Shown piece after piece: positions 6,801-12,289 of a stretch of DNA of 64,000 bases. This stretch comes from Archangiaceae bacterium (lineage in GTDB: Bacteria > Myxococcota > Myxococcia > Myxococcales > Myxococcaceae), in assembly GCA_040381015.1 (NCBI GenBank), contig JBEIIB010000006.1:1-64000 (forward strand), in the 5' to 3' direction. How positions within the stretch are numbered: the first letter of the stretch is position 1; the number at the start of each line of letters is the position of its first letter. A program made the translations under genes and the position numbers. The notes beneath the pieces are model-generated. The model made no database searches. It was given only the letters and a program-made list of their open reading frames with translations, and was not told the origin of the DNA.

Positions 6801-7661
6801 GTGACTGACGCATTGAGGCTGACCGACGTTCGGCGACGGTTTGGAAAAGCCATCGCCCTCGACGGACTCTCGCTCGCGGTACGGCAGGGCGAAATCTACG
6901 GCTTCCTGGGCCGCAACGGCGCGGGCAAGACGACGACGCTGCGCATCCTCACCGGGGTGCTGCACGCCGACGCGGGAACCGTGGAACTCCTCGGCCAGCA
7001 GCTCAAGAAGGTCCCCGTCGAGTTGAAACGCCGCATCGGGTCGGTCTCGCAGGAGCAGCACTTCTACCCGTGGATGACGGGCCGCGAGCTCGGCCGCTTC
7101 GTGAAGGGCTTCTACCCGACGTGGGACCAACCCGAGTTCGAGCGCCTTTCGAAGCTGCTCGACGTCGCCCTGGACAAACGCGCGCAGGAACTCTCGGGTG
7201 GAACGCGCACCAAGCTCGGCCTCGCACTCGCCCTGGCTCCGAGGCCCGACCTGTTGTTGCTCGACGAGCCCACCACCGGCCTCGACCCCGTCGCGCGCCG
7301 CGAGTTCAACGATCTCGTCTCGACCATCGTGAAGGAGCGCGGCTGCACGGCCTTTCTGTCATCGCACCTCGTCGACGAAGTGCAGCAGGTGGCCCACCGC
7401 GTCGGCATCATCCAGTCGGGCAAGATGCGCATCGAGGGTGAGGTGCCGTGGCTGCTGCAGTCGGTGAAGCGGGTGAAGCTGCCCGAGCCGTTGGAAGCGT
7501 TGCCGCCCGGGTTCCAGGTCGTTCGTGGAGACGTGCTCCGCGGCACCCCCGCTGACTGGGAAGCGACGCCGTGGCCTGAGGGCACCCTCATCGAGCTGCT
7601 CAGCCTCGAAGACGTCTTCCTCGCCTTCGCCCGCACCGATGCCCTCGCCGCCGCCGCATGA
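6801..7661 (+). CDS. ABC transporter ATP-binding protein (ABC-2 type exporter ATPase)
   Basis: Walker A GRNGAGKTT. Signature LSGGTRTKL. Walker B LLLLDEPTTGLD. H-loop SSHL. Stop overlaps the next start (ATGA). Confidence 0.9.
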   Translation: MTDALRLTDVRRRFGKAIALDGLSLAVRQGEIYGFLGRNGAGKTTTLRILTGVLHADAGTVELLGQQLKKVPVELKRRIGSVSQEQHFYPWMTGRELGRFVKGFYPTWDQPEFERLSKLLDVALDKRAQELSGGTRTKLGLALALAPRPDLLLLDEPTTGLDPVARREFNDLVSTIVKERGCTAFLSSHLVDEVQQVAHRVGIIQSGKMRIEGEVPWLLQSVKRVKLPEPLEALPPGFQVVRGDVLRGTPADWEATPWPEGTLIELLSLEDVFLAFARTDALAAAA

Positions 7662-9472
7662 GGCGCATCGCCCTCAAGGAACTGCGCGAGCACGGCTGGG
7701 TTCTCTCGGTGCTGTTCGTCCTCTTCGGGCTCGGCCTCGCCGTGTCGCTCAACCGGGGTGACGAAGAAGGCGGCCGGTTTTCGGCGCTGACGTTCTTCCT
7801 GCTCCGCTACGGCGTCGTCGCCGCGCTCGTCGCCGGCAACCGACTCGTGGTGCGCGAGTACACCGGGAGGACGCAGCTGTTCCTCGAGGTGCTGCCCATC
7901 AGCCGGCTGCGCGTGGCGATGGCGAAGTGGCTCTTCGGGTGGGGCTGGGTGTCGCTGGCCGCCGTCTCAGCGTGGGGCGCGACGTGGTGGTGGCAGGCGC
8001 GCACGGTGCCAGTGCCGCTCGAAGACGCGCTTCACGCGCTGGTGCCTGCGCTGCTGTGGCTGACTGCGGTCTGGTCGACGTGCTTCGTCGCGGCCCTGCT
8101 CGGGCGCTACCGCCTGCTGTTCTGGGTCGTCTTCGGGCTCCTTCTCTACGCGCTCGATGAGGTCGGCCAGGTCCAGGTGATGGAAACGCCGCCGTTCCAC
8201 ATCGTGTCCGAGACGCTGGCCGTCGCGAACGCGTGGCCCGCCGCCACCGACGTCATCGCCTGTCTCGTCATCACGGTGCTCGGTCTGGGCCTGGGTCTGC
8301 TCTTCGCGACGGCAGGGGAGGGCAGCATCGCCGCGACGCTGTCGGGCCGCATGACGTCACGCGAGCGAATCCTCTCGTTCAGCGTCGTGCTCGTCGGCGT
8401 CATGCTCTTCAGCGTGCTCACGCGGCATCGAGACCGCCCCGCGTTCGCGCTCGAGTCGGTGACGCCGAAGGACTCTCCCGTCGGGCCCATCGGCGTGCTG
8501 CCCGGTGATGGGGTGAGTGACGAGGTCGCGCAGGCGCTGGTCGAGTCGGTGGCCGTCGACGTCGTCACCTTCGTGCAGGCGATGCGGTACCCGAAGCTGG
8601 CCGGCGTCTACGTGGTGTCTCAACGCGGCCTCGACCCCGACGTGATGCTCCGGGTCCCGCTGGGAGAGAAGGACGGCGTCGTCTACCGCGCGAACATCGC
8701 CGACCCGCGCTTCGACTCCATCAACCTGCGCTACCGCATCCTCCACACCATCGTGGGCGACGTGACGGCATCTCGCGCCCTCGAAGAAGACCGGCACTGG
8801 TTGCTCGACGGTTTCGCGTCGTACTGGGCGGTGCGGGGAGACGCTGACGCGCGCGCGCTGTTGCGAAAACGCGCCGCCGCGTCTCACATCGGGTTGACGG
8901 TCGAGGCGGTGCGTCGATGGAACGAGACGTTCGAAGCGGCCGGTGACTGCTTCGGCATGGGCATCAGCTTCACGCTCGTCGATGCGCTCATCGACGAGCT
9001 CGGCGAGGCGCAGGTCATCGAGCTGGCCCGGAGCACCTTCGTGAAGCCGCACCGCGACCTTCGCGACATGCTCTTCGAGAAGAAGCTCGTCGCGTTGCTG
9101 GCGGAGAAGAAGGTGCCCTTCGAGGCGCTGGTGGCGCGCGCCGATGCCGCTCGTCGCAACGCCGGTGGTTCGCTCGGCTACGAAGGCCGGCTCGAGCTGG
9201 TGCCTCAGGGTGGTGGCCAGACGCGGGTGAAGTTCACGCTGAAGAAGGACGGCGAGCCGGTGAAGCGCTGGCGTGGCCTGACGGCGTCGACGGGCCCCTG
9301 GCAGCAGGGCATCGGTTACAGCGAGGCGGCCCGGGTCGACGCGCGCAGCGGCGAAGCGTTGGCGACGTCGACGTTCTCGCCGGGAGAGCGGCTCTTCGCC
9401 GCCATCGAGGTCGACGACCCCGAGCTCAAGTGCAGCGCCCGCGTGCTGCAGTCGTGGCAGGTGCTGCCGTGA
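7658..9472 (+). CDS. ABC-2 family permease fused to a C-terminal extracytoplasmic domain (degenerate metalloprotease-like paralog)
   Basis: N-terminal MRRIALKELREHGW followed by 6 predicted TM helices. C-terminal domain of about 330 aa aligns with the HExxH region of the next gene but reads HTIVGD (no HExxH). ATGA-coupled to the ATPase. Confidence 0.7.
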   Translation: MRRIALKELREHGWVLSVLFVLFGLGLAVSLNRGDEEGGRFSALTFFLLRYGVVAALVAGNRLVVREYTGRTQLFLEVLPISRLRVAMAKWLFGWGWVSLAAVSAWGATWWWQARTVPVPLEDALHALVPALLWLTAVWSTCFVAALLGRYRLLFWVVFGLLLYALDEVGQVQVMETPPFHIVSETLAVANAWPAATDVIACLVITVLGLGLGLLFATAGEGSIAATLSGRMTSRERILSFSVVLVGVMLFSVLTRHRDRPAFALESVTPKDSPVGPIGVLPGDGVSDEVAQALVESVAVDVVTFVQAMRYPKLAGVYVVSQRGLDPDVMLRVPLGEKDGVVYRANIADPRFDSINLRYRILHTIVGDVTASRALEEDRHWLLDGFASYWAVRGDADARALLRKRAAASHIGLTVEAVRRWNETFEAAGDCFGMGISFTLVDALIDELGEAQVIELARSTFVKPHRDLRDMLFEKKLVALLAEKKVPFEALVARADAARRNAGGSLGYEGRLELVPQGGGQTRVKFTLKKDGEPVKRWRGLTASTGPWQQGIGYSEAARVDARSGEALATSTFSPGERLFAAIEVDDPELKCSARVLQSWQVLP

Positions 9473-11412: not shown

Positions 11413-11569
11413 GGTTCCGTTCGTCAGCTCGCAGCGCAGCCTGGTGTTGCTCGAAGCGCTGGTCCGGGCGCGCTGAGCCGCGCCACTCAGGCTGACCGAC
11501 TTCCATCGCAGGCGCCGGGTCTGCACGTCGCGGCGATCGCTTCTGACGCCTCATGCAACGAACACGGCG

Positions 11570-12289
11570 ATGGCAGCGCCTGACCTTCACCCTGCTGAGC
11601 TGGGTCTTCACCGTGGCCGACGAGTGCTCGCCGCGCTGCTGCTCGGCGGGTCGCTGCTGCTCTTCGCCGTCGCCGTTCCTCGACAGGACGAGCCGCCACA
11701 GCGCCCGTCGCTCACCACACCCAGCCTGGCCGCCGTCGGCGTGCCTCCGCCACCGCGCGTCTCGAGCAGGCCCCGCCCCCCATCAGCCGTCGCCCGTGCG
11801 GCGCGAGCACCTCGGCCAGGAGTCACTGAGGTGTCGCCGCCTCCACCCCAACCTCTGTCACCAGTCGCTCCAGAGTCAGCGCCTGCTCGACTTGTCGCCG
11901 AGCCGACCGCCAGCGAGCCGCCGCTCGTCCGCTCTGAGCCGGAGCCTGTCGTCGTTCAGCCGAGCACGGGTGAGCCGCCTCTCTCCGAACCTACCCCTGC
12001 CGGAAATGGTGAAGCCATCGCGCGCGCCCTCGCCGCATCCAAACGCGCAGCGGTTCGTGCGTGCTTCGAGTCGGAGCTCAAACAGCAGCCGACGCTGCGA
12101 GGCAACGTGCTCGTCGAGTTCGACCTCGCGCCACCAGACCGGGTCATCGACGTTCGGGTGAGCGATGACCTCGAGCGCCCCTCGTTTACCCGGTGCGTCA
12201 GCGACGAGATGCACCGCGTTCGGTTCGCCGCGCTCGACGAAGAACTCTCGGTCGCTGTGCCTTACGTCTTGAGCCCGGAACGGAAGTAG
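11570..12289 (+). CDS. membrane-anchored Pro-rich protein with AgmX/PglI-type C-terminal domain (TonB-C-like)
   Basis: TM segment VLAALLLGGSLLLFAVAV. Pro-rich linker (PPPPRVSSRPRPPS..PPPPQP). C-terminal ..AIARALAASKRAAVRACFESELKQQPTLRGNVLVEFDLAPPDRVIDVRV..FTRCVSDEMHRVRF resembles the C-terminus of the 1579..2868 protein. Confidence 0.6.
   Translation: MAAPDLHPAELGLHRGRRVLAALLLGGSLLLFAVAVPRQDEPPQRPSLTTPSLAAVGVPPPPRVSSRPRPPSAVARAARAPRPGVTEVSPPPPQPLSPVAPESAPARLVAEPTASEPPLVRSEPEPVVVQPSTGEPPLSEPTPAGNGEAIARALAASKRAAVRACFESELKQQPTLRGNVLVEFDLAPPDRVIDVRVSDDLERPSFTRCVSDEMHRVRFAALDEELSVAVPYVLSPERK

Follow-up and report, generated by a model that had tools for sequence, protein, structure and literature searches.

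The periplasm contains no ATP, and the known periplasmic proteases DegP, Prc, BepA and Tsp work without an energy source. Fusion of a peptidase to an exporter of the ATP-binding cassette (ABC) type is best known from the peptidase-containing ABC transporters (PCATs), and the alpha/beta mitochondrial processing peptidase (MPP, family M16) pairs a catalytic subunit with a dead paralogue that helps to hold the substrate. Transporters of the LanFEG type have a role in immunity. FtsEX, which acts with EnvC, PcsB, RipC or CwlO, hydrolyses ATP in the cytoplasm to control a hydrolase in the periplasm or outside the cell, and it need not transport anything. In NosDFY, a permease of the NosY type drives a partner in the periplasm (PDB 7o0y, 7qba), and in the YbbAP-TesA system of E. 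coli an ABC transporter passes membrane-extracted compounds to a periplasmic hydrolase (PMC12646458). Here we analyse an operon found in a 64,000-nt stretch of DNA from an Archangiaceae bacterium (assembly GCA_040381015.1, contig JBEIIB010000006.1, positions 1–64,000, forward strand), hereafter the window. The operon encodes an ABC ATPase and two ABC-2 permeases, P1 and P2, each extended by a domain of gluzincin fold that is probably periplasmic; the zinc-binding motif is intact in P2 and degenerate in P1.

The individual parts of this module are of known kinds, namely, the ABC-2 fold and the clan MA(E) zincins, and its principles have precedents in PCATs, the FtsEX-hydrolase systems, NosDFY, YbbAP-TesA and active/dead pairs such as MPP. 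What was not found in the searched literature and libraries is a putative type V permease heterodimer with a fused, presumably periplasmic gluzincin and pseudo-gluzincin, occurring as a stand-alone three-gene module. YbbAP-TesA, in which an ABC transporter works with a periplasmic hydrolase (PMC12646458), shares the logic of our proposed mechanism, but it has the type VII (MacB/FtsX) fold, and its hydrolase is a separate SGNH esterase/thioesterase without a pseudo-enzyme partner. FtsEX differs in its type VII fold with four transmembrane (TM) helices, of which TM1 and TM2 flank a periplasmic domain, and its hydrolases are separate peptidoglycan enzymes linked to cell division. NosDFY (PDB 7o0y, 7o17, 7qba) is built on two copies of NosY, and its copper chaperone NosD, a beta-helix, is a protein of its own, whereas in P1 and P2 the periplasmic module would be fused via an extra helix, TM7, is a predicted zinc peptidase and comes as an active/dead pair. 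PmtABCD, the phenol-soluble-modulin exporter, and LanFEG have no periplasmic enzyme domain, and their equivalog cut-offs are missed widely. PCATs, with a cytoplasmic N-terminal cysteine peptidase (C39) on a type IV exporter, and MPP, a soluble enzyme of another clan, serve as analogies only.

Operon and architecture of the permeases

All three genes lie on the + strand. The first (6801..7661, 286 aa) encodes an ATPase of the DrrA/NatA/PmtA-like ABC-2 subfamily, the second (7658..9472, 604 aa) P1 and the third (9469..11412, 647 aa from the GTG at 9469) P2. The ATG of P1 overlaps the TGA of the ATPase gene as ATGA, and the GTG of P2 overlaps the TGA of P1 as GTGA; the open reading frames (ORFs) and both junctions are thus as the original prediction had listed them. 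GC content at third codon positions (GC3) is 0.87–0.90 in the three frames and supports them, and a long antisense ORF, 9316–11526, was rejected as a gene by its GC3 of 0.71. The ATPase matches Pfam ABC_tran (E 3e-29) and retains an intact Walker A (GRNGAGKTT, nt 6909–6935), signature (LSGGTRTK, nt 7191–7214), Walker B with the catalytic Glu (LLLLDEPTTGLD, nt 7251–7286) and H-loop (SSH, nt 7359–7370). Its top NCBIfam models are drrA, PmtA, GldA and NodI, every one under its equivalog cut-off. A cognate ATPase with intact catalytic motifs thus shares the operon with both permeases, and it stands directly 5′ of P1 in ~60 loci. A scan of positions 5000–12600 returned no promoter-like site and one terminator-like site, within P2, against 3.1 expected by chance.

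The homologues gathered, 96 for P2 and 81 for P1, are almost all 600–660 aa long. Comparison of the two families with hhalign gave a probability of 99.6% and an E-value of 1.6e-24 over 533 columns, covering both the TM and the C-terminal parts, so that P1 and P2 are paralogues and the operon does consist of one ATPase and two paralogous ABC-2 permeases. AlphaFold2 models (mean predicted local distance difference test score, pLDDT, of 84.3 for P2, with values >90 across most of the C domain, and 87.9 for P1) agree in their layout, which starts with an amphipathic helix at the N-terminus and six TM helices, continues through a short basic loop to a seventh hydrophobic helix and, after a low-confidence linker, ends in a mixed beta/alpha domain and a beta-sandwich at the C-terminus. 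In P1, the ABC-2 six-TM core and TM7 span 7658–8425, the presumed periplasmic pseudo-gluzincin domain 8459–9166 and the beta-sandwich 9170–9469. In P2, the core and TM7 span 9469–10260 and are followed by the low-confidence linker, the predicted periplasmic gluzincin catalytic domain (10309–11028), the beta-sandwich (11029–11298) and an acidic disordered tail (11299–11409). Both permeases were indeed expected to be extended past the last TM helix, though the extensions are longer than the ~300 aa first estimated, at ~350 aa in P1 and ~380 aa in P2.

The fold of the six-TM core is superposable on solved ABC-2 permeases, with fold-comparison scores of 14.3 for NosY, 13.5 for ABCG2, 12.9 for Rv1217c, 11.6 for PmtD, 11.4 for CcmB, 10.1 for KpsM and 9.6 for Wzm. 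Foldseek searches matched the P2 model to M1 and M60 peptidases, and the P1 model to IRAP and ERAP1 (E 1–3e-3) as well as to ABCG25, CcmB, PmtCD and NosY. The modelled C domain has a thermolysin-like catalytic fold. These comparisons, in which the zincin fold anticipated for the C domains is recovered, support the view that each permease carries a gluzincin-fold domain, predicted to be extracytoplasmic. A sequence-only PDB search with full-length P2 gave chance-level matches only, and when only the TM region of P2 served as query, in a search for ABC-2 permeases bearing other C-terminal domains, one fragment was returned.

Predicted zinc site of P2 and its degenerate counterpart in P1

The predicted zinc site of P2 is formed by HETSH (aa 364–368, nt 10558–10572) and DEGLASW (aa 390–396, nt 10636–10656). 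In an alignment of 39 P2 sequences (A1), with identity down to 27%, H364, E365, H368, E391, G392 and A394 are invariant. Among 110 full-length P2 representatives at 50% identity, H364, E365, H368, E391, Y442 and W604 are present in all 110. Since H364, E365, H368 and E391 are invariant in both sets, the motif is not a chance HExxH. E391 follows H368 at a spacing of 22 residues, a spacing kept in 120 of 131 representatives, and in the P2 model residues 387–398 are helical, after a helix at 358–385. Searched against the PDB, the C-domain profile aligned LAHETaHV...ldEGLASwve with IAHELAHQ...LNEGFASYVE of M1 peptidases, a match that covers the zinc signature only and is sub-threshold (E ~0.05). 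E391 is likely the third zinc ligand because it aligns with the Glu of the M1 NEGFASY signature. The invariant Tyr442, in the LKYTIG segment (10786..10803), is a candidate transition-state-stabilising residue, by analogy with M1 peptidases.

The corresponding region of P1 (8744..8827), examined in an alignment of 35 sequences (A2) with the register taken from hhalign, is degenerate. HTIVGD (aa 363–368, nt 8744–8761) stands in place of HExxH, and LLDGFASYW (aa 382–390) matches xDEGLASW of P2, with Asp384 at the position of the Glu ligand. The P1 family keeps R373, E377, W381, D384 and G385, and none of its 81 homologues has HExxH at the homologous site. The three motifs quoted in the original prediction are all present, and its contrast between an intact HExxH...E in P2 and a degenerate one in P1 extends to the whole family (110/110 against 0/81). 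Because the site is kept throughout the P2 family and absent throughout the P1 family, the active/inactive pairing, as judged from these alignments, is ancient and universal in the family rather than a local decay.

There is strong indirect evidence that the C domains are periplasmic. Each permease has seven hydrophobic helices, of which the first six superpose on NosY; the termini of NosY are cytoplasmic, and the seventh helix would therefore lead the chain out to the periplasm. In both families, loops with a predicted cytoplasmic location carry an excess of Lys and Arg, and in P2 the TM6–TM7 loop has 4.0 Lys + Arg and a net charge of +3.5, against −2.6 in the segment past TM7. Furthermore, Cys587 (RLCFQ) and Cys606 (WTCLP) in the P2 beta-sandwich (11221..11292) follow an all-or-none pattern: both are present in 34 and both absent in 5 sequences of A1, the corresponding numbers among the 110 representatives are 20 and 90, and a single Cys never occurs. 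This is the pattern of a disulfide, which Cys587 and Cys606 probably form, and it points to an oxidising compartment, i.e. the periplasm. P1 has a similar, less strict Cys pair, and all named hosts of the module are diderms. Helices, loop charges and Cys pair are thus consistent with the extracytoplasmic location first proposed, and none of them places the C domains in the cytoplasm.

With its conserved HExxH, the putative Glu ligand on the following helix and its fold, the P2 domain has the characters of a clan MA(E) gluzincin. No Pfam or NCBIfam model reaches threshold on the C domain, and the M1, M48 and SprT models give sub-threshold matches only. Peptidase_MA_2 (PF13485), the model first suggested for a profile check, does not match, scoring 12.9 bits on the full protein and 14.2 on the domain alone against a gathering threshold of 32.4, and Peptidase_M1 (PF01433) gives matches in 3 of 10 members, all below threshold (best E 0.11). 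In M1 (ERAP1, IRAP, PepN, LTA4H), M30 (lugdulysin), M9 (collagenases) and M60 peptidases the spacing between His and Glu is 18, not 22. Unlike M1 peptidases, the P2 domain has no N-terminal beta domain, no C-terminal ARM domain and no GxMEN Glu, and unlike all the gluzincins listed it is tethered to the membrane by an ABC permease. Since GTAF, without a Glu, occupies the strand equivalent to GxMEN, P2 is probably not an aminopeptidase and is unlikely to work by an M1-type mechanism. Filing of the domain under family M1 was rejected, given the lack of a model match and of the GxMEN Glu and the spacing of 22.

Distribution and possible mechanism

To what extent the module occurs elsewhere was assessed with two peptide patterns in 185,579 species representatives, one genome per species, a scan in which absences are suggestive and not proven. 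It returned 69 loci, and the order ATPase-P1-P2 is intact in ~60 of them, the exceptions lying mostly at contig ends. The hosts comprise Myxococcota, with Myxococcaceae, Archangiaceae and metagenome-assembled genomes (MAGs) of Polyangiales; Gamma- and Betaproteobacteria, with Steroidobacteraceae and further Gammaproteobacteria, several Massilia species in culture and one Herbaspirillum; and Sulfidibacter corallicola (Acidobacteriota), Verrucomicrobiota, Pirellulaceae (Planctomycetota) and a Spirochaetales MAG of 25% GC. The module thus spans at least six phyla. An exhaustive HMMER search of 1.84 billion cluster representatives with the C-domain profile gave 620 proteins at E ≤1e-3 and 335 at E ≤1e-30. 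Nearly all are 600–650 aa long with the domain at residues ~285–625, and most of the short ones start within the domain and are apparently fragments. As far as sequences tell, the peptidase domain exists essentially only as part of this permease, and the family is rare and phylogenetically wide. The fusion had been called unusual, and this is supported by the 620 matches in 1.84 billion clusters, by the lack of a curated model and by a literature search on ABC-2 permease/metallopeptidase fusions, which found no relevant paper; source annotations of family members read only ‘ABC transporter permease’ or ‘hypothetical protein’. The HET(T/A/S)H...xEGLA motif and the operon definition would permit annotation of this family, which lacks a Pfam or NCBIfam peptidase model.

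No neighbour other than the three genes themselves is conserved. All-versus-all clustering of ORFs of at least 100 aa from 71 loci and the window recovered no conserved neighbour beyond ATPase-P1-P2, and clustering of ORFs of at least 50 aa from 19 divergent loci recovered no conserved partner or substrate gene. The other recurrent clusters are off-frame shadows of the ATPase, P1 and P2 genes and lineage-specific neighbours. According to Pfam, the genes 3′ of the operon are unrelated in ten loci and include an EF-G paralogue, GH43, a D-serine dehydratase-like protein, an amidohydrolase, a TPR protein and a 3-hydroxyisobutyrate-dehydrogenase-like protein. PADLOC models of defence systems do not match P1 or P2 and show generic ABC/AAA similarity only for the ATPase.

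We propose that the three genes encode a self-contained ABC-2 (type V fold) machine, most likely (ATPase)2-P1-P2. Each permease would have a NosY-like six-TM core, TM7 would carry the C-terminus into the periplasm, and the periplasmic part would consist of an M1/M30/M9-like gluzincin domain followed by the beta-sandwich. Judging from its sequence (HExxH-x22-E and the invariant Tyr), the P2 domain may be a functional zinc peptidase, and that of P1 an ancient pseudo-peptidase, which probably contributes the non-catalytic half of a chamber in the periplasm, over the TM dimer. ATP binding and hydrolysis in the cytoplasm could then power the TM dimer as it withdraws amphipathic or hydrophobic segments of peptides or proteins from the inner membrane, and these would be handed to the tethered P2 peptidase and cut in the P1/P2 chamber. 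Extraction would thus be coupled to cleavage, and the ATP-free periplasm would gain an energy-dependent protease. No substrate gene is linked to the operon, and generic substrates are therefore favoured over dedicated maturation; they may be membrane-active peptides from outside, remnants of signal or lipoprotein peptides, or membrane proteins that have been damaged. In support of such a mechanism, PmtCD, ABCG and CcmB, structural neighbours of the TM part, move membrane-embedded amphipathic cargo, and YbbAP-TesA hands membrane-extracted compounds to a periplasmic hydrolase. Coupled extraction and cleavage is the mechanism that we prefer, and we give it about an even chance of being right. The broader idea of an energy-dependent periplasmic protease, in which ATP acting through an ABC-2 heterodimer powers extraction or unfolding and so feeds a fused zinc peptidase paired with a dead paralogue, is put forward only tentatively. 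If true, it would be a functional counterpart of FtsH or Lon for that side of the inner membrane which has no ATP, and a new mechanistic class of ABC systems, namely, a type V fold with fused catalytic ectodomains; it would also extend ABC-driven membrane extraction for periplasmic hydrolysis from lipids to peptides and from the type VII to the type V fold. In any case, this transporter-protease fusion, kept as a unit in distantly related diderm phyla, is a candidate on which proteolysis coupled to ATP beyond the cytoplasm can be tested, and its obligatory pair of active and dead paralogues illustrates, in nature, a membrane machine with a pseudo-enzyme as partner. Genetics is feasible in the cultured hosts, namely, Massilia spp., Steroidobacter agaridevorans, Sulfidibacter corallicola and Herbaspirillum sp.

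The main rival explanation is that nothing crosses or leaves the membrane via the TM dimer and that ATP-driven movements only open, close or re-orient the P1 and P2 domains, switching the protease on for soluble periplasmic or cell-wall substrates in the manner of FtsEX (EnvC, PcsB, RipC) and NosFY (NosD). The data fit passage of a substrate through the TM dimer and pure gating of the protease alike. This weighs against our preferred mechanism, as do several other points: the P1/P2 heterodimer is proposed from strict co-occurrence, translational coupling and analogy with other two-permease ABC-2 systems; the charge signal around TM7 of P1 is weak (+0.66 versus +0.60); the Pfam scores of P2 are marginal (27.9 against a gathering threshold of 27.2 for ABC2_membrane_2, PF12679, and 27.1 against 27.0 for ABC2_membrane_4, PF12730); and the ABC-2 score of P1 is 15.7 against 27, although its TM region is homologous to that of P2 by hhalign. 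We nevertheless consider pure gating rather unlikely, given that transducers of the FtsEX type have the type VII and not the ABC-2 fold, that the structural neighbours PmtCD, ABCG, CcmB and Rv1217c truly move substrates and that no conserved adaptor or target gene was found nearby. The module could also secrete a specific peptide or protein and remove its leader or pro-region in the periplasm, as a counterpart of C39 peptidase-containing transporters. With no candidate substrate gene beside the operon in ~60 loci (ORFs of at least 50 aa in the 19 divergent loci) and no linked membrane-fusion or outer-membrane component, such dedicated export and maturation seems improbable. Finally, both periplasmic domains might be non-proteolytic and serve in ligand binding or sensing, for example as a peptide receptor regulating the exporter, with HExxH binding only a metal or ligand. 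Consistent with this, P1 retains the fold without the zinc site, and catalysis by P2 is argued from conserved residues. The general base Glu365, the three putative ligands and Tyr442 are, however, invariant in 110/110 representatives, a pattern typical of active enzymes, and zincin derivatives that only bind usually drop the Glu, as P1 did; the chances of this reading are therefore slim, slightly below those of dedicated maturation.

The original prediction had instead linked the operon to the myxobacterial gliding and envelope machinery, on the grounds that PglI/AgmX-type proteins flank it. The module would then be an accessory of the Agl-Glt apparatus acting together with these TonB-like proteins. 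Two such proteins are encoded in the window. One (11570..12289, +), anchored by an N-terminal TM segment and bearing, behind a Pro-rich spacer, an AgmX/PglI C-terminal domain (NF033768, E 3.4e-13, 49.5 bits, cut-off 40), directly follows P2; the other (ORF 1051–2868, probable start near 1579; NF033768, E 9e-27) has the same domain but is not a close flank, as ~4 kb and several genes, on both strands, separate it from the operon on the upstream side. On the GltG model the 1051–2868 protein scores 237 bits and the 11570–12289 protein 23.7 bits against a cut-off of 650, and neither qualifies as a GltG/GltJ equivalog, the C-terminal tail domain that they share being the only part to pass its model; in a test for GldAFG, GldA scored 144.6 against 402.6, GldF 24.1 against 288.5, and the operon has no GldG-like gene. 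Among the fetched loci, the tail gene after the operon recurs only in that of the Myxococcaceae MAG EUL_206 (L003, the closest relative; 93%-identical), where it stands behind the EF-G paralogue; it is missing from the other Myxococcaceae loci for which 6 kb downstream of the operon was available. Iterative searches for AgmX-tail or TonB_C genes near the operon with home-made hidden Markov models, which are weak and could let a divergent TonB_C escape, found them only in L003 and in the distant L001/L002. At L001, a TonB_C protein directly 3′ of the operon does speak for the gliding link. Nevertheless, the module occurs in at least six phyla, non-gliding genera included, so that the co-occurrence survey once suggested across Myxococcota reaches well beyond them (Massilia, Steroidobacter, Sulfidibacter, Verrucomicrobiota, Pirellulaceae and a spirochaete MAG), and no cultured model myxobacterium was returned by the two-pattern scan, an absence that is suggestive and not proven. 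In view of the missing synteny, the phyletic spread and the low GltG score, the gliding link is not supported and appears very unlikely, and the adjacency of the 11570–12289 gene to the operon is treated as incidental and not as part of the conserved module.

Neighbouring genes and locus history

The TonB_C gene of L001 (contig Ga0494116_000003, 633 kb) belongs to a proteobacterial-type locus of 36% identity. It encodes a 407-aa protein (L001:10004–11227) with TonB_C at residues 148–220 and a Cys-rich C-terminal extension. L001 is the sole locus besides the window and L003 with a TonB-like neighbour, and this may be a coincidence. The EF-G paralogue of L003 (L003:8197–10179, 660 aa), which lies directly 3′ of P2, contains GTP_EFTU, EFG_III, EFG_IV and EFG_C domains by Pfam. 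The paralogue is also found in further close relatives, at L004:8219–10201 and L008:8296–10275, the Pfam domains having been checked for the L003 copy; in the window there is no EF-G paralogue 3′ of P2 and the AgmX-tail gene follows directly. On the JGI contig that carries P0092 (36.5 kb), the ATPase is 386 aa long, an extracytoplasmic function sigma factor gene and five small ORFs (79–139 aa) precede the operon, and a gene for a 1518-aa PATR-repeat protein follows it.

Comparison of window positions 3472–11380 with L003:1–7910 revealed ~99.5% nucleotide identity up to about nt 7749, at the end of the ATPase gene, and ~90% from the start of P1 onward, with a sharp break between the two. At the protein level, P1 and P2 are 93% identical and the ATPase 99.7%. 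Differing codons are 93 synonymous and 42 non-synonymous in P1, and 104 and 48 in P2. Diversifying selection on P1 and P2 was rejected as an explanation, the differences being mostly synonymous and starting abruptly near nt 7750. As read from these sequences, the pattern indicates a recombination tract, in which case the recent history of the permease genes would differ from that of the ATPase and upstream genes.

A 338-aa ORF (5755–6771, +) ends 30 nt before the start of the ATPase gene. It contains an RGLHAKG motif, has no match in Pfam or NCBIfam and matches PDB 3e4w (E 2e-9), which we take to be a small catalase-related haem protein; among relatives, only the closest Myxococcaceae have this ORF 5′ of the operon. 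The longer version listed, 5344–6771, overlaps the GreA-like gene on the opposite strand, and GC3 suggests a true start near 5755. That gene (5227–5679, −) encodes a 150-aa protein with a GreA/GreB C domain and adjoins a gene for a sigma-54-type enhancer-binding protein (3695–5113, −) with an N-terminal PocR domain and a partial Sigma54_activat match (profile positions 1–58 of 168). On the other side of the operon, 13098–14231 (+) encodes an alpha/beta-hydrolase resembling extracellular short-chain-length polyhydroxyalkanoate depolymerases (NF050058, E 2e-36, under the cut-off), and this gene is syntenic with the 12296–13108 (−) gene in the relatives L005 and L008. Further downstream, 14278–16428 (−) encodes a 716-aa protein that is homologous to the eukaryotic Major Vault Protein over ~500 residues, with phmmer matches in the PDB to the rat and human proteins (E 7e-30) and Pfam matches to MVP_shoulder (E 3e-30) and Vault_3.

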